A stretch of DNA of 64,000 nt from an uncultured Planctomycetales bacterium. Lineage in GTDB: Bacteria > Omnitrophota > Gorgyraeia > Zapsychrales > JAHFFX01. The number at the start of each line of letters is the position of its first letter. Within the stretch, counting starts at the first letter, position 1. Shown in pieces: positions 1 through 64,000 of the stretch. The translations under genes were made by a program, and so were the position numbers. Below the pieces are notes generated by a model. The model had not been told where the DNA came from, ran no database searches, and saw only the letters and a program-made list of their open reading frames with translations. Location of the stretch: NCBI GenBank assembly GCA_964612665.1, contig CAZTCI010000001.1:508896-572895 (forward strand), read 5' to 3'.

Positions 1-3000
1 ATGCAGCACACTTCCTAAACTGTAGTAATTGGGAAGCGGTCGCGTTAAAACAGCGGTCAAGAGACCTTCGACCCAGGCGAGGCGAATGTCGACGTGCTCT
101 GTTAAAGAAGTGATTTGATAACCAGGCTGGCTTTTAATAAATTCCCACTGCTGCTTGATTTGACGCACAAATGAAACGACGCGGTCAAACACCGACTTGA
201 TTTCGCCAGCTATATTGTCGTGCTGTCTTTTAATTGTTTCGTTGATCTCTTTAATTAAGTCCATTAGGTTTTCATAACTGAACTCTTCTTTAATGGCCAA
301 TGAACTTTCTCTTTGAGTGGCAGCATCAGTTATCTCATCCCAATAAGACTGCACAGTTTCAGTAATAAGCTCCAGGGCGTTTCTCACATCATGCAAGCTG
401 AATAGCATTACTGCTTCAGTTTCTTTACCTTCTTCTTTATTCTCCGACGGAGGGATCTCCTCTCCAAAAAGACCGGCCACCAAATTACAGAGTCTTTCTC
501 GTCCAGCGATCTTCGGAATACGGATGACCTTACCTTTATAATCTTGGTTAGGTTCAACTTCAGTCCAGTATAAAGAATCTGTAATACCATACCCTCTAAA
601 ATCATAAGCCAGGATATCGTCGTCTTCACCACTTCGAATGATCATGGGATTAGGGAATCCGATTCTTTTCATTTCCACAATCAATTCAATGCCCGCATTA
701 TTCTTTCCCATCTGATTATCCGTCAACAATAAGTCAACGAGTTTTCCTTCTGCCAAAAGCTGATGATACGTTGATAAAGCCTTTTCCTTGTTGGCAGCCG
801 TATATACTTGATAACCTCTTTGTATTAAATCATTGGATATTGTCTCAAGCACGTCTTCGTCGTCGTCAACCAGCAAAATTAAGCGTTTATACGCCTGAAC
901 ATTGGGAGTTAAAATGGATAAAAGAACAATCATCATTAACCAATCTAACGACACAAAAATGCCTAATGTGGCTCTGGACTCCACTCGCGTTGAATTCTCC
1001 AACCCATTGAACCACCGTTCGACAATTAGCTCGAAATTCCGCAGTTTCGGATCGAATTGCGCTCTCATTTGGATCAGAAGCGATTGGATTTCCTCAATAT
1101 CTCTGAGCGAATTCATTCTAAAATCGGCTTCAAGAATTTTTCGTAAGGAATCAATTAGATATTGTTTCCCATCGGGGATAAAGGCCTTAAGTAATTCTAC
1201 GATTCTGGTCCTCGAGAATCCTCTATTCATCAAGCGCAAAACATGTTGGTTATTTAAAAAGGCCACAATATTAATTGCCGCAAGAATGTCGACATCTTCT
1301 AGGAGGAAAAGCATTTCGTTTAGTGAAATAAATTGCCCGGCTATTCTTAAATGCCAACTGAAAGAAGTCTTAAATTCTTCTTTTCTCGGCAGGCGATCCG
1401 CTTTATTTACAATCCGCATAAAACGCGCCAGCGAATTGATGCCCATTAGATAACCATCAAACGGTCCTTGTTTTAAGAGTTGCATTGCGAATATATCAGT
1501 CAAAAACTGCGGCGTAAGATCCTTTGTGTCCGTCGTCGAATAAAGTGGAGAGCTACGATTGAAAAGCTCTCGAAGGAACTCATAATAGGACAACACATTT
1601 TTCTGAATGTCCTGATAATCAGAAACTCCCGCATCAACAGCCAGCGCCACGGCCTGGCCAAGCAAAGCCAAGTACTGCGGCTGGCTGATTCCGACGGGTT
1701 CAGTGAGTCTCCATAAATCAGAAATTAGCGTGTCGACACTTACTGGAATATTATCTACCCCAATTATGTGCTTGAATCGATTGAAGCTGGCAGCGACCAG
1801 ATTCTCATCGTTCCTAGATTTATCCAACCAAACTTTCTGCCACTTTTCAACCGATGAGAAGAATTCCACCTGAACAGCCGCAGGTTGTCCAATATCAGCA
1901 TCTAAATTCTCCTCGAGAATACGACCGTTGCTCAACACCAAATAATTAACAGGAAGCATTCGGATATAATCCAAATACATCAAACGATCCTCATCCCTAA
2001 AATCTTCAATCGCCGGTTCGATGAGAATGATTTGGATCGGTACTTTGAGACCAAACACCGCCTGCATGAGGGCAATAGCAAACTTCTTAAAAATGCAGTC
2101 AAATGCGGTACTGCCGATCAAAAAGACAGTCAATTTCTTGGAGTCTCGCTCTTGATTTTCAATTAAAGATTTCAAAAACTGGGCGGTTGAATGTCGCGAA
2201 TTGCTTGCGTGCCAGCGCTGAATTATGCGGTCAGGGCCGACGGGAGGATTCTCCGATTCGATGGCCGAGGAGAGAATTTTGCAAGGTTGCTGTGCCACTG
2301 AAAGTTCTTTCACGTCAACCGTTTTTTGATTCCACAAAATGGAACGTAAAAGATTGCCTGCTATTTTTGCGGCACTTCCTTTTGGCGAAGCCGAATAATC
2401 ATTAACAACATCGATTCCAATGCCCCGTACCGCCGCGATAGCTCCTACTGATACGAACAAGCCTGTCACAGCGCTTAAAACTGTCGGCAAAATCTGCGCC
2501 AGCATCCATAGGAAGAAGGTTAGAATATCACCGTGGGGTAAAACGATCATTTCATAACTTTCTTCATCCGACGACATAAATAGTTCTTGACCTTCCAACT
2601 CTTCTTCTAACGATGACAGCCCTTGAAACTCCTGCGTCAGATGTTCCCAGCTAAGTGGTATCTGTCTTTCTTGTGCCTGTATCATGACCAACTTTGCTTT
2701 TTCTTCATCCACACCTAATTGTTGAGCCAGGGCTTTGGGATTATTAATTAGCTCGTACCATTGTTTTTCTGTTACTTGTTTTTGCAAACGCCAGTAGCGA
2801 AGTAATTCTTGGGAGTGACCAAATTTCGCTTCCAATAAGCGTTTAACCACGTTTCTAAAAACAGCTATTACCATGTTATAAGTTAACGCGCCTAGGGCCA
2901 TGAGATAAAATGAGAAATGGAAAGAATAAACTGCTTTTGCTTTTGCTTTTGCTTTATCTTTATCCATCTTGAACTCTGCATCGGTAAATGCCAGCAAATC

Positions 3001-6000
3001 TGTGAATATAGAAATTCTGACTTGCCATTGACTGGAAAGTTTATTCCACGCTGTTGGCTTGCCATCAAATGTAATGATTGATGGCAATTCGTAAGATTGG
3101 CCCTGGACTTCTGAAATCCAATATTGTCGTATCCGGGATTTACCGAGAAATGTTTCGTCACTTCCAACAACAACGAGTTCTTCGATCAGTAATATTTCGA
3201 TAAAAACTCCCTTATCTTTCGCATAATCCATAATAATAGCGGCGGCATTCAAGAGACAATCGCCATATTTCCCGCCGAGCAGAACAACCTGAATACCGTT
3301 TTCTTGGAGAAGGAGATCTAAGAATTTATAAATACGCTGACGGTCTTCTTTAGAAGATTCATGAATTTTTTCGGGCTTGGGTTCTTCTAATTCTTGAACT
3401 ACGATCCCACGCTTTTTTAATAAAGTAACCAAAGATTTAAAAATCGGCTGCATCTCTCTTCCCAAATCACCAGAAACGCTACGATAATCCCTAACTTCGA
3501 AAATTCCAATTGTGAGAGACCTGATTCGATTTATAGCTACAAAAGATTCTTGAGATGATGTGTATTGATTTCGGCGTTTTTGTCGTTGAATAATAATAAA
3601 CTTGCCAAATTCAAAGATAACTATGCCCAAAATAATACTAACCATTCCCACAGTAAATCCCAACATCCCGGCCGTTTCTTTGGTGGCCTTTAAATAAATA
3701 ACATCCGCCGATAAATCTTTATGACCACCCACATTGATAATCATCTGCTGTTCATACGCTAAAGAAAGCGCGGCCGCTTCGTTGATTTCAAATCCGGCGG
3801 ATTTGACCTGAGCGATCAGTTGGTCTTTAAGTTCGCCGAGCGGACCAAAGGATTCTTCAATCATTTCACCATTGAAGGAGACGAGATGTTTAGTTGCCTT
3901 AATAATATGTATTTCACCTCCATGGGAAAGGACGTTATAAACCTCAGATAAAACTATGGACGGCCTCGTCGATTCAAGCACGAAACTAAGCAAGGCCACA
4001 TCAAACGTCTCTGGCGCAAACGACAAATGCTGGGCGTCTCCATTCACCCAGAGACCATCGCTTACTGTGTGTTGCACGATGCGTATCTTTGAGAAATTAT
4101 TATCTAATCCAACAACGACATTCCCCTGTCTTCTTAACTTACCGGCGATGCCGCCGGAACCAGTACCTACATCCAAAATACGATGACCGCTCCCAATTTC
4201 CTGCAGATACCAAAACGAGAGCATAAAAGAATTATTAATAGTGTGCCGCAACAAATCCTCCAACGTTATGATGATGGGCTTACGCACGGCGGCAACAGAG
4301 ATCATTACTACAAGCAGCATCCATTTTATTAATCCGACGAACCAGATCATCGAAATCAAAGAATAAATATCTACATACAGCGAATTATATTGGCCTTGTT
4401 TATAATGTTCATTCGCACGCCTGATCAATTCTTCATGGATCCGATCACCAATCGGAATCATCCCTCGCCGGTGATTATCGGCCAAATATCCGAGCGCCTC
4501 TGCCAATGTTTGCGCGGCGATGCCGAAAAATAGGCGGACATCATTTGTGCCCATTATGCGGGCCGCGGGATTGGGCGCTGGGGGTTTTTCACGCGCGATA
4601 AACTGGCGGATTTCTTCCAGGACATTGAAGACTTCGGTGAGTTGTTTGAGTGTCTTGACCGATAAATGCGGTTGCGGTTCAACAAAGACAATTGAGTTGA
4701 CCAAGGCCAGCAGATGGTTTTGAATTTGATATGCATAATTATCCAGGTCTTTTATATTGGTCTGCTCGGCAACATGCATTTCATAATCTAAATCTTGATT
4801 AGGAAGATCAAGGATTTTGATCGACAACAGCCCTTTGTGTTGCATCTGTTCCAAAGCCGTGTACAAGGCGGCCATTGATTCCATGAAACCTTCACCCGAC
4901 GGAATATAAGTTTGATTCTTTAATTTCGGACCTTCGCTTCTCTTATCTTTCTTGGGCACAGACTCTTTCTGCGTGTAAGGTAAGAAAACGGCGCCTAATT
5001 TTTGGTTGTCTTTCTTGCCATAAAGGAAAAATTCAATCGCCAGCTGCGGAAAGACCCGGACCGTTTTGGGCAAAGCATCAATAGAAAATCTTTGTATTGT
5101 GACGTCCGCTTTCTTAATCGAGACATACTTGGGGTCCTTAAAGAAAATGACCGCTTCTCCATAATCCGTTGAAATCAGGAACTCAACCTTTTCGCCGGCT
5201 GCAAGATTTTGCTCAACCGCTTTCAAATTGATCGTCAATTCAGACTGGGAATTCTGTTCAAGTACTTCTTGTTGGGAGATCGGCTGTCGTCGAGGATGAT
5301 AAGAAGCAACGTCGAATGAACTTCCTTCCAGCAGCATAAGGATAGTTACGACCAAATAGATATTTTTGAAAAGTTGGAATGAAGATTTAAAGCGCGACGC
5401 GAAAACAGCAATTAAAACTAACACCGCGATAATTACCCAAAACTCTTGTGAATGAATAAGGGAAAAATTACTTCCCTCATCAACAGCATTCAAATCTCCA
5501 TTCTTGGCTCGAACTTCCCAAGTTTTATCAGCTTGTTGGTAAGAATTCTTTTGAATCGCCTCTCTAACTCTTTGAGTCAAATCATTTTCGTCGATGCCGC
5601 CAACGTCGATCCAATTCACGAAGGCAGCAATAATATGCTCCTGAAATTCCTCCGAACTTGCCGACATCCTCACTCCGATTTCCATAAATTCTTTGGCCGC
5701 CCTTTTGAGTTCTTCAATGGCTTGACTGCGTAATGACAAATCCTCGATGCTTCTCGCCAGCGTCCATCTCAGCTGATTGTTTAAATACCGTATGAACGTC
5801 TTTAATTTCTCCATATCTCCCTCGAGTAACTTAATTTTCCATAATTGATTGGCCAGCCGGCTGATCGTTTCAAATGCCTTTTGCCAGGTCTTTTCCGACG
5901 ATGAAAGCGAAAGACGCTCTGCCATTAAAAGCAAAGTCTCATCCAAATATTTCAACTCATTCGATGGATAAAAAAATAAATAGCTATCGTAATCATCCAT

Positions 6001-9000
6001 GCGTCCCATTGCGTGGCTATGATAAAGATCTCGCTCGGGAACAAGGGCGATATTCAAAACATAATCTCTGAACGGTGCTTTTTCATAACTGCAATTTTTT
6101 TCGTATCTAAGCCAACCATCGAGATTTTCCATCGCCATTGAAAAAGATCCACGAAGTCCCGGGTTCGCCCTCCAAGCAACGATTTTCAGTAAGAGCTCTT
6201 TCAGTTTGTGATTTTCAAGTAACCGGCCCGTCGCTTGTCCTTGCCAGTTTAGTTCTTCCACATTAAACAACATCTGCGCCAAATATTGCGGAATCGAATT
6301 TAGTCGCCCTTCGGTCCCCCAAAGATCCAGGGCATTTGTTGACTGAGGATCGTTCGAGATCGCAGGATCAAATGTTTTGAAGTCCAGCGCCTCTTTGAGC
6401 ATCCATAACGTTAGATCCTCATAAGTAAAATCGGAAAATCCGCCATTACGCAAAGACAACGGCTGCTGTAATTGTTCACTCATAACAAAATAAAGTCCGA
6501 TCAATCGTCGGAGGCCTTGAATCAGCGGCGGGAAGTCAATCGGATAAGTTCTTTCTTTATCAAAGTGCATTCCAATTGTTCGCACATGCAACAAAAAGAA
6601 TATCGATGTCCAGGCGGTTAACCATTGTTCTTTCAGTTGTCCACCTGCCCAAAACCACATTCGTCGGGTTCCTATTTCAAATGGTTCGACATCCTCAAGC
6701 GAAGCCAAGCGCACAATATCCTGATTGGGATGACCATACTTTGATAACCAGCCTCTGGCTTTCCAATACCGACGCAGACAATCGCCGATCAATGAAAGCT
6801 CTTGCTCCGAAAGTGGGAGCAAATGACCATCTCCTGTCTCACTATCCATTCTTTCAGAAGTAGCATTCACAATTAGATAACCTAAGAGCTTTGTGAAACG
6901 TTGACTCTCGTGAGTGAGAGAATCAAAAATGGTTGAAGCATTAGCATTATGCAGGCTATACAAAACATATCTTCTCTGCTTTTCGTTATAATGTTCCGTA
7001 TTCAAATCTATCTTAGAATCTAACGTAAATTCCCACGCAGGTGGAAGTAACATGCCTTGCGAATTGATATACCCTAGTTGAACAAGATCATTAAATAACT
7101 GTGGCAAGTCTTTGTCAGGAACAATCCCCTTAAAACTTTTCAAGCTTACCGCATCATATTGATCGAGGAGGTTTGTCAGTGTTTCGATCCATTGCGCAAC
7201 GGGCCGCGATGTATTCTGAGCATTGGAATCAGTTAAAGTAACTTTCTGCTGTCTGACTGAGAGACGACGCCAGAAACTCTCTCCCCATGACAACTTCAGC
7301 ATCATCAAAATCCCGAAGACAATCAGCGCAAGCCATCCCCAACTTCCTTCCGCACCCGTCGTTGGCCAGAGAATCAGATGGCTGCTCAATTCATTTCCCG
7401 ACGCTGATTGAGCACTCAACATCACGATCCCCATCGCAGCGGCAATCATTCCGCCGCGCAGGCGTCCCCAAAATCCTCGTACTAAGCGAATTGCTAACGT
7501 AACAACGAGACCCGCAGTAATGACGGTCAATAATCGATTGAGAATAGATTGCAAAAGGTTTGAAAAAATAGGGTTGTGCTGCAGGAAGGAAAGAAGCGGA
7601 GTATCTTTTTTGCCGACGGGCGGGGCGTTGGGCTGCATCTTAGCATAGTGCCACACAATCAAAATACTAACGCCAATTAAAATCAATAGATATTGCACGA
7701 GTGAGTAGGTGTCCATGTTGAAAATGTTATTTGTTTTAGTCTCCCGATCAAAACCTCCATCCCGTTCGGCGAGCATCAGAAAAGCCGTCTCGGCGATGTG
7801 CATGTCGCTGATGCCGTGATGCAGATAGATTTTATGCACGCTGCGCGTCGAAAGACCGTTTCTGACGAGGCCCAGGTCCCAAACGCCCTGTCCTAACCGC
7901 AACCGATCACCGATTCCAGCGAGAAACTCCGGCGATGCATCCGCGACGGTAACAACCGGGGTGAACTTCCGTTCAGTCTTTGGAATTAATTTTTCTAATT
8001 GTTCGAATAGATTTTCTCTTCCTAACCGTCCAAGAAGAAGATTGGGGCTCGTCACCACAATCACATTGGCGTAAATGGGATAATTTTTATGAAGTTTCAA
8101 AAGCTCGTCGGACGCGGACAAGGCGGCCTGGACCATAGGACCGATGGCGACGATGTTAACCACATTGTCATCGGGATGGTAATCAGGAAGATGGCTGTAA
8201 TCGACGAGCCGGTAACCGCCTTTGAGAATTTCTGGGCCGAGACGCTTGATGGCGGCGGGTTCATTAAGGCCGGAATAAGTTTTCTGTTCCCGCAACCGCC
8301 GGAACAATCCGCTGCGTTCAACCAACAGGCTCGATGCGCGGATATACACGGCGTTACGCCCGTGGTCATGGCCGGTCAACATAAGTTCAAAGGTTTTTTT
8401 CAATATATAATCTAACTCGTCAAGAAAAGCCGGTTCCCACATAACCGTGTTGGGCATCGCCCGGCCGATGTCCGCCGAGACACTCGATTGATGTTGAGCA
8501 CCGTCGGTGGCCAGCGTTGGGCCGGACGGTGTTCCGACAGCAATAAATTGTGAACCCCAGTACTGGGCGTAAAAAAATTGATCCAGCGCCCGGCGGAATA
8601 AAAACATATCATAGATCGTAACAACCGGAATCAAACGCACGCCAAACAAATCATAAGCCTTGCCAAAAGCCGCCGCCAAGGTCACGGCGTTCATTTCTGT
8701 AATGCCAATGCGTAAATGATTTCCCGCAAATGAATCGGCGCTGACAACACCTTGAGTGGCGCCAGGAGCAATCATTCCCGTAGATGATCCAACATCCGGA
8801 GAAATCGTGACCAACCGCGGCGCTATTTTCTGCCAGAAGCGATCGTCTTCGGAAAGGTCCGCCGCCGCCGATTGACTGAGTAGACCTTTCACCCTATTAA
8901 TCGACATACCCAGATATGTCTGCGTTGGAATTCTCCCGCGGGCCGGTGAATAAAGTTTTTCCGGCCAGATTTGATTCTTTAATTCTGCTTCAAACGCCGC

Positions 9001-12000
9001 GCGGTTTGCATCGATCATTTGCTGCGCTTCGGCGGCTTCATGATCTAAACGTGAACGGACATTCTTAAGTGTCTTAAACTCGACGGAAGTTTCATTGAAA
9101 TTGGGGAATGGATTATCTTGCGGCATGCCTAATTCGTTACGGACCTGCGCCAATTCTTCGGGAGTCAATAACTGCGAATGGTTTCCTTCCTGACCAATCA
9201 TCGGTCTTAGACCCCAGCCTTTGATCGTATGCGCAATAATTACCGTCGGGCGATCGCTGGCGCGGGCTTCGCTCAAGGCTTTGATTAACTCAACCAAATC
9301 ATGGCCGCCCAAATCGGTAAAGAGCTCATAGATTTTTTCATCGCTGTATTTCTTCAAGAACCGCTTTATTGGCCTTTTCCTTTCCAAAGAGAGTTTCTTA
9401 TTCTTATCATCCAAGGGAAAAGGCCTAATATTGACTTTTGTTTCTTCCTTTGGATTCACAAAAGTCAATAAAGAAGAACGTTGTTCGATCATCCAAGCGC
9501 GGATTCCGGCGCCGTTTTGAGCGGAAAGATTTTGGTAAACTTTCTGGTCGATTGTTTCCATAACTTTCCTAAAGACACTTCCCCCTCGTCGGGCAAAAGC
9601 CGCTTGCAATTTTCGGCCCCAGCGCAGTTCAACGACTTGCCATCCAGCCGCCGCGTACATTCCGCGCAGTTGATCCAATTTCCAGTTTTCGGTATTTCCG
9701 TCGAGTGATTGGCGGTTGTAATCGACAATATGCGTCACGCGGTCCAAGTTAAATTCTTTCACTAACGTCAGAATCTCCCGCAGGTTTCCTTCTTCAGATT
9801 CAGCATCACCCAAGACCGCGAAGAAATGCGAATCAGAAACCGCATGGCCATGCGCCTTGAGCCATTTCCAAACAACGTTAAGTGCTAAGGCAACCGCCGG
9901 CCCTATGCCAACCGAGCCCGTCGGAATTTTGACGCCGTCCGGGTCCGCCATTCCCGGATACGCGTGCAGGCCTGGTTTGTCTAATTCATCCGTGTTGACT
10001 TCCGGATGCTTGGCGATGAAGGCGGCTTTTAATTCTTCAAGTTCTTTTAAGACTTCTGGCGCAAGACGGCCCCTGATATCTTCAGCCCTGAAATCAACCG
10101 GCAGCCGGACAGCGTTATCACGCAAACGATAAAGTGTATCGACGGGTAATCGACCTAAAAGATATTGAATGGCATGATACACCGGCGCGGCGTGCGGTTT
10201 GTGGGCGACAAAATCATGACCGCGCATGACAGCCAGCTCGAGGGCGATCATAATGTGCAATGCAGACGCGGATGCAGCCTGGTGCCCGCCGGTTTTAGGC
10301 AGTTCATATTTAATTTTATTGGCTTCATCAATTTCACCGATTGAAATCCCAAGCGCCCGACGGGCGATGCTTTCTAAAGCTTCGATGTCCTTCGGTGCAA
10401 ATCCTTCCGGAATTTTATCATTTCTATTTCGGGGAGGCCGGTGTCCGGATGAGCTCATTGCAACAATCATCATCGTGGACAAGAACAACGCAGCCACATG
10501 TCCACCTACGAAGTAGGACACAGCCAATAGTCCATCCAGTGCCAGCGCGATGAGGACAAGCGCAGTTGCAAATACGGTGGAGAGGTTTTGATCTGAGCAT
10601 TCTTTTATTCCATTTTTTGTTTTTTTGGTTTCCTGAGCTGAAAACTTTTTCCACCAGGCAAACGTTTCACTCAAACCCGTCCCAATATTCTTTTGTCGTC
10701 TCAACTTGTTGACAATCAAAATGATTAATGTTATGTTGGCGTCGAAAAGATCATTGATCAATAATTGCGTGGCCCTCTTTGAAAGATGGGAGAATCGTAA
10801 GTGAAGATCTGGGAATTTGAATGGGACAACTGGAATATTGAGCATATTGCTAAACATTCCGTAAAATCTCAAGAGGTAGAAGAAGCTTGTTATCGCCGCC
10901 ACGTCGCTAAGAAAACTAAAGATGACATTTATCTTGTCTATGGTCAAACGTATTCTGGCCGTTATCTTTTCATCGTTATTAAATATAAATCTAAAGGAAT
11001 TGTTTACCCTATAACCGCTCGAGACATGACTGATTCTGAGCAGAGATTCTTCCTTAAACGGAGGTAACATATGATTAAGAAGTCTTCTGTAATCCCAAAA
11101 TTTAAGAATGTCGCCGATGCGGCTGAATTCTTCGATCAACATGATACGACCCAGTTTCTCGACGAATTGCAACCAGCGCATCTTAAGTTCCCTAAGCCCA
11201 AGCATCTTTTGATCACCTTGAAACCTAAACAAATAACGAGGCTCAGACGCTTGGCCGACAAAATGGGTAAACCTTCCGATCAAATTGTTGAGCAATGGAT
11301 CACCCAAAAACTTGCCGAAGGGTAATGATCTGCCCAATGTGGCACGGCTCAATTTCTTTACAATCTCTTTAAAAACGCCTTTCGCTTTATCTGAGGATTT
11401 GGTTCGAATCGTCAGTATCAACAGCAACACATCAACGGCCAACACAAGGAACATCAAATGTAATCCCGGTCCCGGAACAAAATATCCTTTAAACACAACC
11501 ACCGGACGTTCCTCATCAGGCAGAAAACCTAATTCCTCGCGGATCTCCTCGGGAGATATTCTTAAAATATGTATGGGCTGAGGATGATCTTCAAAATATT
11601 TTAAGAACAGGCTTGTAATCGTTTGTCCGTTATCAGAAGCAATATGAAGACGGCCCAGAATAAAAAACGTGTCTTTAGCAGCTTTTCGGCCGCGCGATAA
11701 GATATTGATCATATTGGGGAACATGAATGGTTCCCTTAGGTCAATAGCGAATCTAAAGTTCTCCGAGACATTGATCCCTTTCAAAATTTCTTGAACAGCG
11801 GGCTCGGCCTGGCCGACGACATGATTTTCGCGTTTGGCTCTGGCCATGAGGGCTTTTATAAAAACAACAGTCAAATCACGCCAAGTTGTCAAGTCTTTAA
11901 GCATGTCCGCTGAGTTATCCGGGGGCAATGTTACGATCGCGGAAAAAACGAGACTGTTCCGGGTGTTGTAATAAAGAGAAATGCGTCTGTATAACGTTGT

Positions 12001-57000: not shown

Positions 57001-60000
57001 GAGAATGGATTTCAAACTCTCTAATACATGTTCGGTCTGCGTCAAAACGTCCGATTCCTCGGCTTCAAGCTTATCGGCCTCAGCCATTAATTCTTCAACC
57101 TTATAGGCTGGAGCCCTATGCGTTTTTAAAGCTGCCTCCATGTGAACCATTCTCGTCCTGGCCGCATCAATGAGTGCGATGGCTCGTTTTTCTGAAACCT
57201 CTTGCATGTATTGGGTCAATGTCTTCCCGAGTGCGTCCTGATCACTGGCTAATGTTTGTAATTCATTCCGTCCTTCCTCGGAAATCTTGGATTGATGAAC
57301 GGTGATGGCACTGATCGTCAGCGCTGCTTTACTCACATCATCCGTCATCGTCTTAAGCCTCTGATAAAGATCATTAAACTCCGTCAACAAGACGCCCATA
57401 TTATCATCACTGACGATTAGTGTCTTCTTTAGATAAGTGGCTACGGATGCATTGATCTCTAAAGACACAACGTTGCGCATCTGCGTCAATCGATCCTTCG
57501 TTTTTTCCATTAAATCTTCGAGCGTAATAAATCGATGACCAGCTTCAAAAGAGTCCTGAAGCAAGATCATTTGCGTCTCTTGCGTTCCTTGATAGACATT
57601 GCGGGTCTCCTCAATCAGCGTCTCAATGGATTGAGGATCTTGCTGCAGAATTTGGGCCGCTCTTCTTATTTCCGCCACGGCCAGCGTCCAGAGATCCTCG
57701 TCGGCCTGATCCATCAAACGTTGCGCCCAAGCGATAAATTCAAATTCCATCAACTCTTGATTCCAAGACGAACTCAATTCGTGAATCAATTTAATCGTTT
57801 CAAATTCGGGAGACTCTTTTAAATAATCTCGTCGAACCATTCTTAAAATACGTGCCTCGATGACATCGAATTCATCCCAATTAGAAATTTGTCGATCAAT
57901 GAGGAACTCGGCGACCTCATCCAGCGTTTTGAGTTTTACGATCGCCGTCAACAATTCTCGCTCTTGTTTCGATTCTGTCTTCTCTTCTTGTTGCAAGTTT
58001 TCGTTCGATTCTCCGTTTGCACGGAAAAGTTCGTTATGCTTTGCAGATCCTTCTTCGATCGATTCGTTAATGGCATTCGCCAATACTCGTCGGGTGTTTG
58101 GATCAAAAGCCACATTGTCCGGGAGATCTCTGCGCATGCTAAAGTAAACAAATAATATTTCGCGCCGTTCTCCTTCCCGCCAGCTATATCTGAAAAAGAT
58201 TCGATATGGTTTCCAATGAAGTTCTTGTAAGTTCAAGTAATTAATTCCAAATCCCATAATCACCTTGCCCAACGCCTTCCCATGCTCAATTTGCGATGCC
58301 GACGTCATCCATCGATCGATCTCATCCAGTAAACGCTTCTTTTCTTTCTCGTTGAGTTCGGATATGTTTTCATAAAATTCTTCCGAGGCCCTAGCTCGTA
58401 AACGTTTCAATGATGTGCTGCCATTGGCATAAATTGCTGTGCCGACAATAATGCCAAGGATAAACATCCATGAAAACGACGTGTCGATCATAATCCCCAC
58501 CACCGCTCCGATGAGAATCATGCGGAAGAGGTGATCCGCCGTGAGATGGTAGAGATGACGAAGGACGTAGGCGGAGACGCCGATAAAGAGGATGCTAATG
58601 AGCAACACTGGCGAGATCGCTTTGAGATTATGATGTTTCGACGGGTTTAACTCACCAGCCTTCTCATCCAAATGCTGAGTGATGTCTTCAACGGGAATGG
58701 CAAGACCATAATAACGTATAATTTCTGATAAATTGACAAAAGTGGTTTGGGCTTCATCCCATTGTTTCAGAGTTTGAATCTGTGATACCTGTTGCGCCAG
58801 TTGATGAATCTCTTCGACCATAACATCATGCAGCGCGTCTTTCCGAATGGCTTGACGGCGAGATTCAATCTCGTCGATCATCTCTTGGAAGGTCTGACGA
58901 TAAGCATCCAGAGCTTCCTTTGTCGATTGATATTGATCATCCAGCAAGGATTGCTGTTTTTGTAAACGCGACTGCAACAATCGTACGCGCTCAAGGGGAT
59001 CTTGAGGATGACGTCGCTTCGCCTTCGCTTTGGATATCGTTTTCCGCCCATGAGGATATCCTACAAATTTTTGATCACGAATCACGCGCCGGACGGCTTT
59101 CCCCTGCGTTTCTCCTCGCTGATTCTTTCCGGTGATGAACTGAATCGCACTTCGCCTTTTATTCCAGATGTTATCCGAACTGATTTCAACCGGCAAACTG
59201 ACTCTGATGGCACTGTTGGGCCAGATGCCTTCGGAGGTATCAATTCCAAAAGACAGCCGGATGATTTCAGCGGCCGCCGAATCTTTCCCTTGCAACTCCG
59301 CATATCTTAAACGCATCGCCTCAGCCTCGGGAGTATCGATCTCACCGCGGAAAACCTTTCTCAATTCCAAATCTCGCGCATTCAACACGACCGCTTTTTG
59401 CTTAATCGCCAGAACCTCCTTTTTCCTGGCCTCAGGCAGAAGCAAGATGGTTGACAACGGAACATTGAAAGCTGCGGCAAATTGAGGCAACGCACTGATC
59501 GAAAGCGTGCCGTCTCTCATTTGCTTCTGAAGATTTTGATAAAACATCCCGATCCGCTTGGCAAAATCTTCTTCGGTTAAATCGCGTTCCAGGCGAAGGA
59601 CCAGAAGATTGGCGAAGATTAAGCGTACAAATTCTTTTCCATCCGTCGGGCCGATGAACGGATACTCGGCTTCGTCTAAATTATCCAAAAAGAAAAGCAA
59701 TGGATTTCGCTGCAAGATATTCGCTATCTGGACAATTTTCGCCACCTGCGTGAATTGCAAATTATTTTCAATCCGGCGAATAGAATTCCCCGACATTCCC
59801 AGTTTTGTCGCGAGCCCTTGACGGGCTAAATCTGATGACGATGCTTCACGATATTTTTCAACCTGAGCGCCCACCCATTGACCATAGCGTTCAATTTCTT
59901 CCAATTTCTCGGGAGTGAAAATACTCGTCCTCGACTTCCTATCCACTCTGGCCATCCCGGCGAGGAACATCAGGTTAAGACCAAGGGCGGTGAGGGATAG

Positions 60001-63000: not shown

Positions 63001-64000
63001 GATCAGTCCGGAAATTGAAATCTTTTCTTGTGACTCCAAACGAAATGGATCTCTCACCAATACATCCATATCCTTCGGTTCCGACGGATTAGCCGCCTCC
63101 AACGCTTCTTGAATCAACGCGCTCACCGCGGATTCATCCATTTCCAGAATTTTTCCGGCTTCTTCAATTTCCAACGACGCCACGGCGATCAAATCTGAAT
63201 CCCCTTCGGTATTTTTATAACTCAACAATCGGCTGCCCCATAATGTAAATTCATGTTCAATCAGCGTGCTTAAAAAGATCGACTCGCTGTGATCGATGAT
63301 GGATTTTAGACGTTGGAATTCCGATGAGCTCGGATTGCGAAAGGCCTCGCGAATGCGTTTGGCGGCGCGTCGTTCAACAAATGCGGCTTCTTCACCTTCC
63401 ACATATTGCCTGAGGAAGAACTGTTCGACATCCTCAATACTCTGCATGGCCTTGACGCTTTGAACCAATGCCTCAGATAAATTCGCATTTGGCATTGAAT
63501 CTCCATTGGTCTCAGAGATATCTTCAACCTGGATATATCTCAACAACCGCTCATCCAATCGACGAATCATGTCGACTTCACTCACGGGATCGAGAATATC
63601 CCCGAGCACTCTCATAAGAATATCATTTATTCCTATCTTGGCGCGGGGGCTGTTAATGTCTTTCCTAAGCGTGTAATACAATAAAGTGATCTCCCGTTGG
63701 CGCCATTCGTATTGGAAAAAAATGCGATGGTCGCTCCACGGCAATTCCTGAATATGAGTCTCTGCGAAAATACTTGTGAACGCCTTTCCGATACTTTTCG
63801 GCTCGATCATCTGATTAACCCCACTGATCCAACGGGCGAGTTGATCCAAAATTTGATTTGTTTGATCGGCTGTCAATTCGTTAAACATCTGGCGATAAAA
63901 CGCAAGCGAATACCGCAGGGTTAATGGTAGAATCGCCGTCGTTCGAATCTCCGACGATTCATGGACCTGACCATTTCCATTATTTTTGATCGATTCTTTT
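1..64000 (-). CDS. Fragment of one giant ORF, open at both window edges (about 21,333 codons in-window); multi-domain, multi-transmembrane giant protein
   Basis: The phase is the reverse-strand one whose codons coincide with + triplets 1-3, 4-6 ... (first full codon 63999-63997). I hand-translated well over 100 sixty-nt lines spread over the window (e.g. 1-1500, 2401-2520, 3901-4200, 7741-7800, 9481-10440, 10621-11400, 20701-21660, 22921-23580, 38101-38880, 42301-43740, 51001-51360, 62641-63999). None contained a TTA/CTA/TCA triplet in this phase, i.e. no stop. All domains listed below are in this same phase. Independent support: none of the 33 minus-strand ORFs in the supplied track is in this phase (their end coordinates are all 1 or 2 mod 3). 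That is expected from an ORF caller that needs a terminating stop if this phase never terminates in the window. Confidence 0.9.
556..888 (-). other. Receiver (REC)-like domain of the giant ORF
   Basis: Translation of 541-900: KRLILLVDDDEDVLETISNDLIQRGYQVYTAANKEKALSTYHQLLAEGKLVDLLLTDNQMGKNNAGIELIVEMKRIGFPNPMIIRSGEDDD. It has the acidic pocket (VDDD), a phospho-acceptor-like Asp (LLLTD) and a conserved Ser (IIRSG). It is preceded by a TM helix (GIFVSLDWLMMIVLLSILTP, about 905-965). Confidence 0.7.
3850..4260 (-). other. Class I SAM-dependent methyltransferase domain of the giant ORF
   Basis: Translation of 3901-4200: EIGSGHRILDVGTGSGGIAGKLRRQGNVVVGLDNNFSKIRIVQHTVSDGLWVNGDAQHLSFAPETFDVALLSFVLESTRPSIVLSEVYNVLSHGGEIHII. 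Motif I (ILDVGTGSG) lies at 4153-4179, followed by the acidic post-I residue (GLD) and the DAQHL / FDV motif pattern of Methyltransf_11/25-type enzymes. Confidence 0.8.
7750..10440 (-). other. Full-length AceE-like TPP-dependent E1 (homodimeric pyruvate/2-oxoacid dehydrogenase E1, transketolase-like) embedded in the giant ORF
   Basis: Hand translation shows three matching blocks. The first is LPKTGGHQAASASALHIMIALELAVMRGHDFVAHKPHAAPVYHAIQYLLGRL (compare AceE GGH..S..S.A.L..V..NHFF ... GH.SP..YA). The second is the TPP motif AVLGDAESEEGNLREILTLVKEFNLDRVTHIVDYNRQSLDG (compare GDGE...N.N.QRLDG). The third is a C-terminal block ending ...GLSTRSVHKIYLHHGISDMHIAETAFLMLAE. There is no start or stop of its own. 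It is flanked by TM segments at about 10450-10600 and 7290-7720. Confidence 0.8.
10709..10737 (+). promoter_or_regulatory. Sigma70-type promoter of the nested brnTA cassette (TTGACA-N17-TATGTT)
   Basis: TTGACA at 10709-14, a 17-nt spacer, then TATGTT at 10732-37. It lies 64 nt upstream of the brnT GTG start. A GGGAGA ribosome-binding site sits at 10788-10793. Confidence 0.55.
10753..10762. promoter_or_regulatory. Perfect 10-bp palindrome ATTGATCAAT between the -10 element and the RBS of brnTA (candidate operator)
   Basis: The palindrome is read directly from the sequence. It sits between the promoter and the RBS, where type II toxin-antitoxin (TA) autoregulatory operators usually lie. Its function is inferred only. 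Confidence 0.3.
10801..11067 (+). CDS. brnT: BrnT-family (DUF497) ribonuclease toxin
   Basis: The 88-aa ORF starts at GTG with an RBS 7 nt upstream. (M)KIWEFEWDNWNIEHIAKHSVKSQEVEEA...YLVYGQTYSGRYLFIVIKYKSKGIVYPITARDMTDSEQRFF matches the BrnT pattern (FEWD..N..KH.V...E..E ... G..l.vv......iriISAR.a...E...Y). The toxin-first gene order is typical of brnTA. It ends in TAA. It lies antisense to, and codon-aligned with, the giant ORF. Confidence 0.85.
   Translation: MKIWEFEWDNWNIEHIAKHSVKSQEVEEACYRRHVAKKTKDDIYLVYGQTYSGRYLFIVIKYKSKGIVYPITARDMTDSEQRFFLKRR
11071..11325 (+). CDS. brnA: BrnA-family antitoxin (RHH/CopG-like C-terminus)
   Basis: The 84-aa ORF starts 3 nt after the brnT stop. IPKFKNVADAAEFFDQHDTTQFLDELQPAHLKFPKPKHLLITLKPKQITRLRRLADKMGKPSDQIVEQWITQKL matches the BrnA pattern (IP.F.seeE.aeFwd.HDst.y.d... 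then a ribbon-helix-helix segment). It ends TAA TGA. Confidence 0.85.
   Translation: MIKKSSVIPKFKNVADAAEFFDQHDTTQFLDELQPAHLKFPKPKHLLITLKPKQITRLRRLADKMGKPSDQIVEQWITQKLAEG
12940..13610 (-). other. Three tandem LuxR/GerE-type HTH domains of the giant ORF
   Basis: Translation gives three units. Unit 1: SRHIAILKGLYAGLNDKDIAAQLETGSETIRKSRSQIHQLL. Unit 2: LSELELHILRLLNKGNTTIEIGQALSSPAINIRSKISRLYKVLAV. Unit 3: FTEKQLNILYGFVEGLSDQQIAERFNVKQKAVQAIWSKI. Each has the LuxR pattern (L..rE..vl.l...G.s..eIa..l.is..TVk.h...i..Kl). Confidence 0.75.
17170..17830 (-). other. Four tandem XRE (Cro/C1)-type HTH domains of the giant ORF
   Basis: Translation gives four units. Unit 1: RQLKVLRKSLRMTAKDVGALSKVRARRISALENGH. 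Unit 2: RQLKILREALRMSPEELAALAHISRNRINDLKS. Unit 3: RELKLFRNILELSPQKIADLSNTTPFKIKGLEKG. Unit 4: KRLKAVRESLGMSQKDAGLLADISARVINDIEIG. The repeat period is about 50 aa. Confidence 0.75.
18590..19260 (-). other. Possible atypical protein-kinase-like fold (RIO/Kdo-like) in the giant ORF
   Basis: The motifs, in order, are: LIIKVPKAD (VAIK-like Lys), VIVQERVHPV (hinge-like), GLVDRDFHNWRENYGL (D..... N spacing like HGDLSEYNI) and RMVAFDVNDF (DFG-like Asp). This rests on weak motif-level evidence only. Confidence 0.35.
19620..20500 (-). other. FAD/NAD(P)-binding oxidoreductase (DAO-like) domain of the giant ORF
   Basis: Translation of 20401-20520: KRKVAVIGGGIFGITAAWFIAQDSRYDVTLYE (a GxGxxG Rossmann motif plus an acidic residue at the end of beta-2), followed by RNKLFGGVSGNWDRRLHRGYHHPRS. 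Confidence 0.7.
23030..23058 (+). promoter_or_regulatory. Sigma70-type promoter of the nested coiled-coil cassette (TTGACA-N17-TATTCT)
   Basis: TTGACA at 23030-35, a 17-nt spacer, then TATTCT at 23053-58. A GGAGG RBS at 23068-72 precedes the ATG at 23083. Confidence 0.5.
23083..23460 (+). pseudogene. Small coiled-coil protein gene interrupted by one in-frame TAG (23203-23205), nested antisense in the giant ORF
   Basis: ATG at 23083: MHKRKDKNMNAINMTDIVRKSMQELVVPELKILQGDVQSL-TAG-NDNLEIKADLRILNNRVDNLEKSLNSRMDSLNSRMDSLEKRLDNLDKRVDGLERQIHSMREDFKLALDIHERLTALEVKISHHN-TAG. The heptad-like repeat continues in the same frame across the TAG. A 21-bp tandem duplication lies at 23278-23319. Promoter, RBS and terminator are all present. 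The gene is codon-aligned with the giant ORF, in which the TAG reads as CTA (Leu). Confidence 0.5.
23488..23539 (+). terminator. Rho-independent terminator of the nested coiled-coil cassette
   Basis: A perfect 13-bp stem (CGGGCCGATTTCC at 23488-23500 pairing with GGAAATCGGCCCG at 23516-23528) has a 15-nt loop and is followed by TTGTTTTTTG. There is no U-tract in the minus-strand orientation, so it should act only on + strand transcripts. The giant ORF reads straight through it (...TAFYKIVYSNQKTTGRFPLYNFEEIGPAM...). Confidence 0.75.
23960..24190 (-). other. PD-(D/E)xK nuclease-fold motif (YraN/UPF0102-like) in the giant ORF
   Basis: Translation of 24001-24180: GTLNELRAVHKLLMDFHFKVVSLNKEIADPHRENKSFEIDAVLIDSNHRLVFVEVKS. 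This matches the pattern G...E..a...L...g..v...n.......EIDlia.....lvFVEVK. Confidence 0.5.
25250..26260 (-). other. Supermodule B: three HTH-like units plus a small conserved domain (paralog of 28020-29160)
   Basis: The HTH-like segments are ...MEIRKARYDRWERGFTIPKPQAVQNLLSIL, AEELAQMTNIPKRTIAHWVVE and ITHKQAAAILGRSNPNKISMGYHE. They are followed by ...LFKLTGPFENGDGTIIVPIQEAVFISTEEARAFENNQDLIWAIRKAL, which aligns with the 28.0-28.5 kb module. Confidence 0.5.
28020..29160 (-). other. Supermodule A: three XRE-like HTH units plus a small conserved domain (paralog of 25250-26260)
   Basis: Translation includes SLAKLSGVDQTTISMIAAGN (28861-28920, a classic XRE HTH), IRARLGIDDKTLRKILG and ITDSEINQRSKVSRDAKLYRLQKA. 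It then continues LLKIEGPFANGDVMLLPEENAVYITEEEYRRVEGDPGLIEAIRKVI. Confidence 0.6.
31975..32430 (-). other. Two LuxR / sigma-70 region-4-type HTH units of the giant ORF
   Basis: Translation gives LEEKEREILPFAIAGYHPADVARLLQIKWTTVIITARRGLLRYRDL and MSPPQREIITLILNGWTIQDISTERGTTEQSVKGTLNLIL. Confidence 0.65.
33513..33539. repeat. Junction hairpin: 11-bp stem (one G-T pair), loop CCGGA
   Basis: CCTTCCCAACC ccgga GGTTGGGGAGG. It is read in the giant ORF as SSPTSGVGKV and lies just upstream of a TM helix. A near-identical copy at 34110-34136 has loop CCGGG. Confidence 0.8.
34110..34136. repeat. Junction hairpin, second copy (loop CCGGG)
   Basis: CCTTCCCAACC ccggg GGTTGGGGAGG. The flanking sequence GAAAAGTTTTTCCACCTT is shared with the copies at 33497 and 32674. 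Confidence 0.8.
35181..35203. repeat. Junction hairpin: 9-bp perfect stem, loop TGCGG (QPRRLN family)
   Basis: CATTCAACC tgcgg GGTTGAATG. Shorter copies with 6-bp stems lie at 30540-30556 and 31305-31321. All three are read as QPRRLN, 10-20 codons upstream of a TM helix. Confidence 0.8.
35470..36080 (-). other. Sigma-70-family-like domain (regions 2 and 4) of the giant ORF
   Basis: Translation gives a region 2-like segment, SSVIKFDRRNGVGLLTYVVNGINLKIRG (compare fd...g..F.tYa...I...i.r), and a region 4-like segment, LTLPQKEVLVRKIALDQSSSIIVEQMGSSHQYIEQVSNYIISKI. Confidence 0.6.
36484..36600 (-). other. Representative TM-turn-TM junction (FLDGVFRF-TM1-HQHLVG-TM2)
   Basis: Translation of 36481-36600: FLDGVFRFIIISAAFVAMVTHQHLVGAEAWIAVLCASAVL. 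The same architecture occurs at 47893-48000 (FRFTVIPSFLIAVWTTFHLVGGIGVLWAMIFVTAG), at 33960-34130 and at 10450-10600. By eye, about 45-60 hydrophobic TM-like segments occur across the window (an approximate count). Confidence 0.7.
37711..37905. repeat. Left copy of an approximately 195-bp direct repeat bracketing the vapBC-like cassette
   Basis: It aligns with 38917-39111 at an offset of 1206 nt (a multiple of 3) and roughly 80 percent identity by eye; the first 32 nt are identical (AAAGCGGAAAATTCCGTCGAGGAATAACATCA). It encodes ...AEILIIVLMAAVLISKSRVILENLRAFYEFLKTSPPS..MLFLDGIFRFI. Confidence 0.8.
38147..38175 (+). promoter_or_regulatory. Sigma70-type promoter of the nested antitoxin/PIN cassette (TTGACA-N17-TATACT)
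   Basis: TTGACA at 38147-52, a 17-nt spacer, then TATACT at 38170-75. An AAGGAG RBS at 38186-91 sits 8 nt before the ATG at 38200. Confidence 0.6.
38200..38391 (+). CDS. Putative type II antitoxin (VapB-like small ORF) upstream of the PIN toxin
   Basis: The ATG at 38200 has a consensus RBS. The track's upstream TTG start at 38176 overlaps the -10/RBS region and is unlikely. The 63-aa product MTSLQDAMKIIKPLQNRFKK...LLGAFKGATEGKSSSQCVRELRNSSYGKFK overlaps the PIN ORF by 17 nt. The call rests on position and size rather than strong similarity. Confidence 0.5.
   Translation: MTSLQDAMKIIKPLQNRFKKSHKSRRKTKIADDLLGAFKGATEGKSSSQCVRELRNSSYGKFK
38375..38842 (+). CDS. vapC: PIN-domain ribonuclease toxin (VapC-like)
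   Basis: The 155-aa ORF carries the PIN acidic signature in order: LLLDSDVLVSW, TLEED, SPTDAILLSVATTLDNVVLITRDRELL. It ends in TGA. It is the only nested ORF that is not codon-aligned with the giant ORF (+ frame 2), yet the giant phase stays open across it. Confidence 0.8.
   Translation: MVSLNNPSLLLDSDVLVSWLTLEEDILTHKKLWEAPHKIMTMVEENSSLGCSTIINLMEIRFVLRAKKKFSEHKITSSLNKLSEILKLFIPDEINLLKANELQSKYLSLSPTDAILLSVATTLDNVVLITRDRELLKAASKIVSASTPEEFLAKR
38917..39111. repeat. Right copy of the approximately 195-bp direct repeat bracketing the vapBC-like cassette
   Basis: See 37711-37905. It encodes ...AEILIIILVAAVLLSKSRVILENLRAFYELLKTSPPSKMMMLFLDGIFRFI. Confidence 0.8.
39225..39800 (-). other. Histidine-kinase-like module: possible H-box plus HATPase_c catalytic domain
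   Basis: Translation gives an N box (HAFINLLKNAVYT), a G1 box (EVKDNGPGIAPE), an F box (KIFEPYFTTK) and a G2 box (GTGQGLYIVKSIITAHNGEI), followed by SELGQGASFFVTLP. The upstream segment LKTLHSVTHRLKIIIDF (39721-39780) may be the phospho-acceptor helix. Confidence 0.8.
42230..43800 (-). other. Divergent SecA DEAD-like motor ATPase domain of the giant ORF
   Basis: Four blocks match SecA. FVKFDTSAGKTMALSMAADALEKMGVSTDIVTTTDHLAQDGF compares with SecA EMRTGEGKTL...GKGVHVVTVNDYLAQRD. ALLDEADYYLWD is a DEAD box at about 43318-43329. FIATEDIASAHHVKELL follows. ITSPMGGRGVNIL compares with SecA IATNMAGRGTDI. Confidence 0.8.
44040..45680. repeat. Tandem duplication with a period of about 1 kb (copies about 44040-44680 and 45040-45670), each encoding an XRE HTH; short acidic sub-repeats lie between the copies
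   Basis: About 620 bp align at high identity by eye, with offsets of 1002 nt at one end and 990 nt at the other (a 12-nt in-frame indel). Each copy encodes ...LLKKY..L..(I/L)RK.L.LSQTQFAEIL.LS..SV..YE.GR..I.MERF..SVHHLAHYFGIAFQP.EPEM.FEFQ. The sub-repeat IPIAFEQNENVQ(F/L)IDESIII is encoded at about 44698-44760 and 44903-44975. Confidence 0.85.
49334..49366. repeat. Junction hairpin: 14-bp perfect stem, loop CCGGA
   Basis: TACCCATCTACACC ccgga GGTGTAGATGGGTA, with every pair checked base by base. It is read in the giant ORF as THLHLRGVDG and is immediately followed by the TM helix YAILGVVVVMLIFIG. Confidence 0.9.
49500..50700 (-). other. TPR-like helical repeat region of the giant ORF
   Basis: Translation includes SLEQAWFTLFKGMIHFDQQHYVEANQAFVQALAINNRYVT, ...YYRIIIDITEQKFESAVERIRLLKAW... 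and ...AQARISFEQKEYDEAVRRWTSI... The repeats are about 34 aa long with the A/F/Y..A pattern. Confidence 0.55.
59440..59850 (-). other. Two XRE-type HTH units of the giant ORF
   Basis: Translation gives QGLATKLGMSGNSIRRIENN (59761-59820) and LTEEDFAKRIGMFYQNLQKQMRDGTLSISALPQFAAAFNVPLSTIL (about 59440-59580). Confidence 0.7.

Follow-up and report, generated by a model that had tools for sequence, protein, structure and literature searches.

Open reading frames (ORFs) that exceed 20 kb occur in most classes of Omnitrophota, and their products contain few domains with an annotation and show poor conservation (Seymour et al. 2023, PMC10066038). The Velamenicoccus archaeovorus LiM ORF encodes 39,678 amino acids (aa) with 42 predicted transmembrane (TM) helices (Seymour et al. 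2023, PMC10066038). There are 46 curated Omnitrophota genes longer than 90 kb, with products of up to 85,804 aa, and Omnitrophota giants combine numerous TM regions with a divergent SecA_DEAD domain, in which the scaffold/wing is missing and which has an overlapping PF01043 (West-Roberts et al. 2023, bioRxiv 10.1101/2023.11.21.568195). These giants further have a signal peptide and a C39 or S8 peptidase in their N-terminal region, a part of the protein that lies beyond the DNA described here. The content of the Archaeovorin subtype, whose type sequence is the V. archaeovorus LiM protein, includes glycosyltransferases, methyltransferases, glycoside hydrolases, peptidases, S-adenosylmethionine (SAM)-dependent methylases, NUDIX, and HEAT (West-Roberts et al. 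2023). A later catalogue holds 5,761 proteins of at least 10 thousand amino acids (kAA), up to 147,155 aa, with 80% sequence singletons, 94% membrane-targeted proteins, and 65% with a repeated Pfam family; its module 1 consists of methyltransferase PF08241 and HATPase_c PF02518, and its TM-only class is read as anchored in the inner membrane with the domains in the cytoplasm (Nielsen and Lui 2026, bioRxiv 10.64898/2026.06.07.730766). Here we describe a stretch of 64,000 nucleotides from contig CAZTCI010000001.1 (positions 508,896 to 572,895, hereafter the window), which is occupied from end to end by a single ORF. We consider it likely that the window is an internal piece of a real giant gene whose host is an uncultivated bacterium, most probably one of the Omnitrophota, and that the product is a membrane-threaded mosaic protein.

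The window contains an internal fragment of one giant coding sequence (positions 1..63999, minus strand), with 21,333 stop-free codons and open at both window edges. In the reverse-complement phase with its first codon at window base 63999, none of the 21,333 codons is a stop. Stops number 849, 906, 1,222, 1,344, and 1,212 in the other five frames, where the longest open run is 325 codons. If background stops occur at 4-6% per codon, a run of 21,333 open codons has a probability of ~0.96^21333, which is ~1e-378 or smaller. Stop-codon reassignment is ruled out, since TAA, TAG, and TGA are all three missing from the giant frame, which is explained by no genetic code. In 21 of 21 consecutive 3-kb blocks, the G1-G2 codon periodicity peaks in the phase of the ORF, and the amino-acid composition of the frame is protein-like (Leu 11.3%, Glu 7.5%). 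All matches from Pfam, NCBIfam, and PDB fall in this frame, from aa 1379 to aa 21141. In the five blocks of internal paralogues that we compared, synonymous differences outnumber non-synonymous ones, and the ratio of non-synonymous to synonymous substitution rates (dN/dS) is 0.19-0.61 where dS is unsaturated, so the protein sequence of the giant frame has been under purifying selection. We conclude that the window is one real, continuous coding giant ORF.

An earlier note on this DNA had claimed that one stop-free minus-strand ORF spans the whole 64 kb, that this openness is not due to chance, that every recognisable domain lies in this phase, and that the gene runs past both edges to encode more than 21,000 aa, and these claims hold, the extension past both edges as very probable. 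It had also pointed out that the ORF track has no ORF in the giant phase and 33 minus-strand ORFs elsewhere. The counts were borne out: the listing of ORFs of at least 60 aa has exactly 33 on the minus strand and none in the giant phase. The cause is technical and not biological, because an ORF that leaves the source at either end is not shown by the lister. No stop is present at either edge. A duplicated module begins at about aa 20, before the first in-frame Met, and a start at that Met would truncate the module. As this conserved module starts from about aa 20 and both edges are open, the giant gene very probably continues beyond both window edges, so that 21,333 aa is a minimum length.

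We note that the longest ORF outside the giant frame encodes 307 aa (window 20245-21168, plus strand) and runs antisense to the giant gene, as long ORFs commonly do opposite long coding regions. All features below are on the minus strand and are given by window position, with residue numbers of the giant frame in brackets.

In every architectural respect that could be tested, the window fits the described giant class. Recognisable modules account for about 13% of the residues, about 87% are unannotated, and there are ~10 non-redundant domain types above gathering scores, including PF08241, PF02518, and PF00072. Hydrophobic 19-mers number 38, 49, 68, and 85 at Kyte-Doolittle thresholds of 2.2, 2.0, 1.8, and 1.6, respectively, and the 68 segments at 1.8 compare with ~20 in shuffled sequence. 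These TM-like segments were counted by hydropathy threshold, not by a dedicated TM predictor. They occur throughout the chain, one per ~250-560 residues, and many are paired as hairpins 20-45 residues apart. In common with the Archaeovorin-type giants, the window has an ORF of tens of kb, dozens of TM helices, mostly unannotated and poorly conserved sequence, and a divergent SecA_DEAD motor without scaffold/wing, and methyltransferase, HATPase_c, and TPR are among its modules. It also has the features of the class 1 multi-enzyme/module-1 giants (PF08241, PF02518, and PF00072, with TM-like segments throughout). A close match by description is SA1420A_u42255795_1875, a protein of 122,534 aa with 331 TM helices, which with SA1420A_u42621477_744 makes up a TM-dense pair from Gorgyraeaceae (Nielsen and Lui 2026): many Pfam families tile both proteins, nucleotide tandem repeats are absent from both, and the spacing of TM segments is ~one per 370 aa, compared with ~one per 250-560 aa in the window. 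The window sequence is a singleton, like 80% of the long-protein clusters in the catalogue of Nielsen and Lui, and it has a repeated Pfam family (HTH_3, at least 9 times), as in 65% of that catalogue. Therefore, the product falls into a class that has been described before, that of giant, membrane-threaded mosaic proteins with poor conservation. There are also differences from this class. Of the families of the Archaeovorin subtype, only methyltransferase PF08241 is found in the window, the PF01043 feature of the West-Roberts giants is missing, and homology to Omnitrophota giants is detectable only in one ~230-aa module and in the SecA motor. The helix-turn-helix (HTH), sigma, and LuxR modules and an E1-type thiamine diphosphate (ThDP) enzyme of the window are unmentioned in the texts of the West-Roberts and Nielsen-Lui preprints. 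The regulatory and cytoplasmic-type modules and the richness in HTH domains are the most distinctive points of the window.

A divergent SecA-type ATPase motor, extending from the first to the second nucleotide-binding domain (NBD1 to NBD2), is located at 41962..43761 (aa 6747-7346), based on Pfam, PDB, and NCBIfam matches and motif alignment. The motor scores 25.1-25.7 bits against Pfam SecA_DEAD (PF07517, gathering score 24.6) and 22-23 bits against Pfam P-loop_SecA, which is below the gathering score of 27 of that family. When compared with PDB by phmmer, it returned SecA structures alone (best E = 1.4e-8). With canonical SecA and SecA2 it shares the NBD1-NBD2 order, Walker A GKT, DEAD Walker B, the GRG motif, and the motif-VI arginines, but the identity is just 21-25%, and the motor lies ~6,750 residues into a far larger protein. 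The canonical architecture NBD1-PPXD-NBD2-HSD-HWD, in which the last two are the helical scaffold and wing domains, is not found. The match to NCBIfam secA (TIGR00963) reaches 42.1 bits against an equivalog cut-off of 800, the scaffold/wing (PF07516) was not detected in the motor even at E <= 10, and SecA alignments end by aa ~7346. The alignment to a protein of normal length, P0001, spans NBD1-NBD2 with Walker A DTSAGKT (DTGEGKT in P0001), Walker B LLDEAD, and GGRGVNI (AGRGTDV in P0001), and the stretch between NBD1 and NBD2 aligns weakly with this PPXD-bearing protein. Two motif-VI arginines (arginine finger) are kept within RQIMARIARNGEAG. As the Walker A Lys/Thr, the DEAD box, and the motif-VI arginines are conserved, the motor is probably an active ATPase.

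When 1.84 billion representative proteins were scanned exhaustively with HMMER, 165 of them matched at E <= 1e-3, all SecA-like and all confined to aa 6665-7346, the best with 24% identity and E = 8.6e-12. The best of these matches are taxonomically scattered, including Logan and JGI contigs, Delongbacteria, Sedimentisphaerales, and Xenobia. Three long proteins, P0018, P0037, and P0002 (1,932 aa), carry the SecA module deep inside. P0018 is a protein of 5,059 aa named 'partial [Candidatus Omnitrophota bacterium]'. P0037 has 6,657 aa and comes from a JGI metagenome contig of 20,910 bp, and it contains 4.8 hydrophobic segments per 1,000 aa, compared with 3.3 in the window protein. Its internal SecA_DEAD (85.8 bits) is followed by a Sigma70_r2 domain; a TM-hairpin module, GGIKRVKGIVG...NGGWTGSNLWL, recurs along the chain, and methyltransferase-like stretches are readable in its sequence. 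Both P0037 and the window protein are thus rich in TM hairpins, with an internal SecA module alongside sigma/HTH-type modules, although they align only in the SecA module (24% identity). The combination of SecA_DEAD and Sigma70_r2 in P0037 indicates that a motor beside sigma/HTH modules in long multi-TM proteins is not unique to the window.

P0001 (658 aa) is the closest normal-length relative of the motor by BLAST, with 23% identity over 560 aa and E = 2e-17. The scaffold/wing is missing from P0001, and PPXD is detectable. Its gene was found at two loci, L002 4091-6067 (Logan SRR34066069) and L003 2001-3977 (Logan SRR34065980), and in the same locus are genes for HlyD/CzcB-like adaptors, an M50-peptidase/PqqD-like protein, a ShlB/TpsB transporter, and an exoprotein with a TPS domain and a length of at least 3,219 aa. 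P0001 has the appearance of an accessory SecA dedicated to a two-partner secretion system. Like the window motor, it has no scaffold/wing, and it is tied to the export of a very large protein; unlike the window motor, it is a separate gene in an operon, unfused to its presumed substrate. This circumstantial analogy suggests that truncated SecA motors of the P0001/window type may serve the export of very large substrates.

At the sequence level, the window protein is essentially an orphan. The queries for relatives were both ends of the window, the profiles of two modules, and the SecA region. Three queries (~8,200 aa) against 5.8 billion protein clusters gave two matches in all: one weak match, P0001, for aa 6690-7400, one match, P0152, for aa 1-5000, and none for aa 17300-19800. 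Nothing was confirmed with the N-terminal end and the P0152-module profile among GTDB representative genomes (including Omnitrophota), or with the C-terminal end and the duplicated-module profile among JGI metagenomes. There was no match for a megablast of 25 kb against plasmids and phages, and none for the SecA region in IMG/VR. P0152 aligns to a module at 51766..52452 (aa 3850-4078) with 30% identity over 254 aa (pairwise E = 2e-19), and this module has no Pfam or PDB match. P0152 is a partial protein of 6,035 aa from a 'Candidatus Omnitrophota bacterium' (GCA_042567325.1), whose ORF fills a contig of 18,140 bp. It contains GT5, epimerases, and M20/M28, a typical sugar-metabolism giant-protein content. 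SecA-motor matches aside, P0152 is the sole database relative found for the window protein.

The window protein contains at least 13 HTH-type DNA-binding modules overall, of which at least 9 are XRE-type HTH_3 domains. The first XRE-type HTH_3 is at 59701..59865 (aa 1379-1433; 28.7 bits, gathering score 23). A recent internal duplication with one XRE HTH_3 per copy, found by self-comparison, is located at 43951..45663 (aa 6109-6349 and 6439-6683), directly upstream of the SecA-like motor, and the two Pfam HTH_3 domains are at 45109-45267 (aa 6245-6297) and 44107-44265 (aa 6579-6631). This is the most recent duplication, with 76% aa identity, about 85-91% nucleotide identity, ~1-kb spacing, and a dN/dS of 0.61. 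Further along the chain, there are a Sigma-70 region 4 type HTH at 31987..32109 (aa 10631-10671; Sigma70_r4_2 37.1 bits, gathering score 25.7) and two more Pfam XRE-type HTH_3 domains at 28801..28959 (aa 11681-11733) and 26062..26232 (aa 12590-12646). Four tandem XRE-type HTH at 17128..17781 (aa 15407-15624) are paralogous to each other, with HTH_31 at 64.1 bits and a dN/dS of 0.19. Pfam and NCBIfam place a LuxR/GerE HTH (aa 16805-16850) and a sigma-70/extracytoplasmic function (ECF) region-4-like HTH (aa 16982-17018) at 12946..13587; the former scores 54.2 bits over 3 stretches, and the latter 31.5 bits against sigma70-ECF, below the cut-off. NCBIfam links several of these HTH domains to type II antitoxins (MqsA, HipB/Y4mF, and PezA).

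The other recognisable modules are of enzyme, signalling, and repeat types. TPR-like repeats at 50125..50712 (aa ~4430-4625) stay below Pfam gathering scores (TPR_2 26.4 bits against 27, TPR_16 26.6 against 32.7). A histidine-kinase-type catalytic ATPase domain with N, G1, and G2 boxes is located at 39232..39795 (aa 8069-8256), and matches HATPase_c (78.8 bits), solved histidine kinases (E = 1e-17), and an NCBIfam AtoS-like model (101 bits). There is a candidate H-box-like THRLK at aa 8082-8086, and no Pfam match to HisKA/DHp accompanies the kinase domain. Near the other end of the protein, a response-regulator receiver at 577..879 (aa 21041-21141; Response_reg 37.8 bits, gathering score 30.2) carries the acidic pair DD, and the Asp in LLLTDNQM is a candidate phospho-acceptor. 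One polypeptide thus combines a histidine-kinase catalytic domain with a receiver ~13,000 residues away. A beta-alpha-beta Rossmann motif for binding of flavin adenine dinucleotide (FAD) or nicotinamide adenine dinucleotide (phosphate) (NAD(P)) is found at 20302..20490 (aa 14504-14566; DAO 38.1 bits, NAD_binding_8 35.9 bits), and the DAO profile is matched only over its N-terminal 65 positions. A ThDP-dependent enzyme of the homodimeric pyruvate-dehydrogenase E1 (AceE)/transketolase type, with the GDA...N cofactor motif, is located at 8059..9990 (aa ~18004-18647). It matches Transketolase_N (81 bits), Transket_pyr, PDH_E1_M, and Escherichia coli E1 (1l8a, E = 3e-29), and its 157 bits against NCBIfam aceE are far under the equivalog cut-off of 860 bits. 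A class I SAM-dependent methyltransferase is at 3886..4200 (aa 19934-20038), with 52-54 bits against Methyltransf_11 (PF08241, gathering score 21.2).

These modules are consistent with a protein that works at the cytoplasmic membrane. The chain would be mostly alpha-helical and would be stitched into the membrane by dozens of TM helices or hairpins, ~one per 300 residues, probably inserted co-translationally. The embedded SecA-like motor may help to translocate or thread the extracytoplasmic loops of the protein itself, or may work with SecYEG; self-loop translocation is modelled here on the P0001 locus and on the proposal of West-Roberts et al. The modules that depend on ATP, SAM, ThDP, FAD, or DNA would face the cytoplasm as membrane-tethered enzymes and regulators, possibly following proteolytic processing. 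These module types support the inner-membrane-anchored, cytoplasm-facing reading that was proposed for the TM-only class.

Several observations weigh against a membrane-threaded giant protein of Omnitrophota. PPXD, the preprotein-binding domain of SecA (PF01043), was not detected in the motor even at E <= 10, and Pfam and NCBIfam scans of the 21,333 aa found no glycosyltransferase, glycoside hydrolase, peptidase, NUDIX, or HEAT. A crude TM-parity test placed all cytoplasmic-type domains on one side at no threshold, and its outcome depends on the threshold; the topology of giant proteins was equally hard to place in West-Roberts et al. (bioRxiv 10.1101/2023.11.21.568195). AlphaFold models have low confidence, with a mean predicted local distance difference test score (pLDDT) of 41 for the duplicated dark module with its paralogue and of 34 for the SecA-like motor with P0001, owing to the lack of homologues. 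There is no phylogenetic marker in the window, and the phylum is taken from two weak domain-level relatives and the architecture. Finally, giants with SecA_DEAD and a preprotein-binding domain, without scaffold/wing and with CheY-like receivers, were also described in Actinobacteriota (West-Roberts et al. 2023).

The last two points bear on the host. The same kind of giant gene may belong to a host outside Omnitrophota, such as another lineage of the Planctomycetes-Verrucomicrobia-Chlamydiae group, Actinobacteriota, or a candidate phylum, and we consider this unlikely though worth keeping in mind. It would agree with the SecA-bearing Actinobacteriota giants and their receivers, with the proteins of at least 30 kAA in Verrucomicrobiota (Nielsen and Lui 2026), with the scattered taxonomy of the best SecA-module matches, and with the absence of the window from GTDB representative genomes, Omnitrophota included. 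On the other hand, the sole named long relatives, namely the only non-SecA relative (P0152) and one long SecA-bearing match (P0018), are both annotated 'Candidatus Omnitrophota bacterium', and the overwhelming majority of ORFs of such length in published surveys come from Omnitrophota. The GC content of the window, 42-48%, would be atypical for most Actinobacteriota, which also counts against such a host. Omnitrophota is therefore the probable host phylum. The earlier note had reported numerous TM segments, a divergent SecA DEAD-like domain, and largely uncharacterised content, and our counts, scores, and motifs agree on each. It had further read the combination of TM segments and SecA as that of the Omnitrophota giants; this matches the description of West-Roberts et al. 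(2023), but the combination does not prove the phylum, as SecA-bearing giants also occur in Actinobacteriota.

Whether in Omnitrophota or elsewhere, the ORF could be real and yet not yield one polypeptide, either as a polyprotein that is cleaved or through internal starts, with the modules acting separately. The modules do resemble a string of independent bacterial proteins between TM hairpins. However, neither a protease domain nor a recurrent cleavage motif turned up in the window, and sites resembling promoters are not enriched in the central 20 kb (22-42 kb), where 27 such sites compare with 30 +/- 4.3 in shuffles. Terminator-like sites in the same region number 21 against 22 +/- 5.5, and internal promoter/terminator structure was rejected with both kinds of sites at chance level. 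In addition, the loss of every stop over 64 kb argues for selected read-through translation. Peptides of the V. archaeovorus giant ORF were detected (West-Roberts et al. 2023; Seymour et al. 2023), which does not settle processing. We therefore regard a cleaved or separately started product as quite unlikely and keep the reading of one membrane-threaded chain.

It is more doubtful that this segment is an extracellular effector for prey adhesion and cell-wall degradation, which is the function proposed for Archaeovorins among the Omnitrophota giants in the literature. TPR-like repeats are present, and the giant ORF is very scarce in Cys, with 35 of 21,333 residues (0.16%); the long SecA-bearing relatives P0018 and P0002 have 0.14% and 0.10%, and the median of ordinary-length SecA-like matches is 0.67%. 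Low Cys is often seen in exported bacterial proteins, so this point counts for an extracellular effector. In contrast, Pfam and NCBIfam scans of the 21,333 aa found no lytic transglycosylase, dockerin, lectin, or adhesin domain, besides the missing carbohydrate-active and peptidase families, and the modules that were found require ATP, SAM, ThDP, FAD/NAD, or DNA, which are cytoplasmic needs. Every recognisable module is of a cytoplasmic, regulatory, or cofactor-dependent type, and none is carbohydrate-active or an adhesin, which argues against a uniform extracellular cell-wall-degrading reading.

The same modules admit a bolder interpretation, which we regard as improbable. The protein could represent a distinct architectural class, a membrane-threaded 'regulatory polyprotein' with SecA motor, kinase and receiver, toxin-antitoxin-like modules (the RelE/ParE-like motif and XRE/MqsA-type HTH domains), and at least 13 HTH/sigma domains, in a host maybe outside the sampled lineages. 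If so, the HTH/sigma domains may tether chromosome or foreign DNA to the membrane, or may be freed by regulated proteolysis as transcription factors, and the double-hairpin islands described below may have a function in the mRNA, for instance as translation pauses by which TM insertion is coordinated.

The integrity of the assembly is also supported by the nucleotide sequence. Tandem Repeats Finder detected one trivial 42-bp repeat only, and identity between the closest dispersed repeats is 81-90% over at most 300 nucleotides. GC content is 0.42-0.48, and both GC content and GC skew are uniform along the window. Nothing in the sequence suggests a repeat-driven misassembly or chimera. A stop-free frame made by assembly or polishing (a chimeric contig, collapsed repeats, or frameshift- or stop-correcting polishing of several genes) is highly improbable: the collections searched hold no independent copy of the contig for comparison, but the repeats are few, short, and diverged, GC content and skew are uniform, the coding periodicity keeps one phase in all 21 blocks, ~1,000 expected stops are beyond removal by any polishing tool, and such ORFs are routinely recovered in independent studies with long and short reads.

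If the contig is sound, the membrane-threaded giant read here is one more protein that exceeds 21,000 residues and half the length of titin; it comes from an uncultivated bacterium and has essentially no relatives among ~15 billion predicted proteins. It would be more evidence that giant membrane-threaded mosaics represent a large and fast-evolving share of bacterial gene space whose functions are unexplained. It is worth noting that the window opens no new category, as giant TM-rich SecA-bearing ORFs have already been catalogued by the thousands in the 2023 and 2026 surveys.

Other types of genes and giant proteins were considered and rejected. A nonribosomal peptide or polyketide megasynthase does not fit, as no condensation, adenylation, ketosynthase, acyltransferase, or carrier-protein family was found in Pfam and NCBIfam scans, and a dockerin-type giant was rejected because Pfam scans gave no match to dockerin PF00404 or TSP3 PF18884. 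An eukaryotic origin was rejected as the modules are bacterial in type (sigma-70 region 4, GerE, XRE, SecA, histidine kinase/receiver). No Rfam family and no tRNA is present in the window, and embedded RNA genes or tRNAs were therefore rejected. A tandem-repeat giant (titin-like, RCC1-type, or RTX/adhesin-type) was rejected in view of the single 42-bp repeat and the few two-copy blocks.

Self-comparison shows that the protein is non-repetitive, with only a handful of two-copy blocks. These are aa 20-620 and 1860-2450 (~25% aa identity, 24-27%), aa 3535-3735 and 5745-5940, the HTH_3-bearing pair upstream of the motor, aa 8294-8365 and 8696-8768, aa 11880-12007 and 12792-12917, aa 13683-13724 and 14054-14095, and aa 15390-15492 and 15493-15603. 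The first pair is an old duplicated dark module of ~600 aa, and its beginning is located at 63625..63942 in copy 1 (aa 20-125) and at 58105..58422 in copy 2 (aa 1860-1965). This beginning contains the motif W..RIFF.Y.WR..REI..Y..R.D, which resembles the C-terminal strands of RelE/ParE toxins. ParE_toxin matches copy 2 at E = 0.047, below threshold, and the AlphaFold2 model of the module, at the pLDDT of 41 given above, shows three helices and a beta-hairpin. A RelE/ParE-like nature of the aa 20-125 module is thus unproven. Paralogue profiles of four dark modules, including this one, gave no significant match in PDB.

Three paralogous modules that precede TM segments are located at 32668..34138 and share a 23-nucleotide core, GGAAGGTGGAAAAACTTTYCGCC, which is exact in all three. 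The core is part of an island of 46 nucleotides with copies at 34093-34138, 33496-33541, and 32668-32713 (aa ~9955-9969, 10154-10168, and 10430-10444), found by nucleotide comparison. The island is 96% identical between two copies, and the expected number of chance matches is zero. The modules around it are 30-37% identical as protein, and the flanks are unalignable as DNA. The 23-nucleotide sequence has no match in IMG/VR. The island encodes SSPT(P/S)GVGKVEKL(F/S)A directly before a hydrophobic helix, and two of its copies each fold into a pair of adjacent hairpins (-22 to -24 kcal/mol, z = -2.0 and -3.4). This nucleotide-identical island points either to local gene conversion or to a constraint at the nucleotide (mRNA) level.

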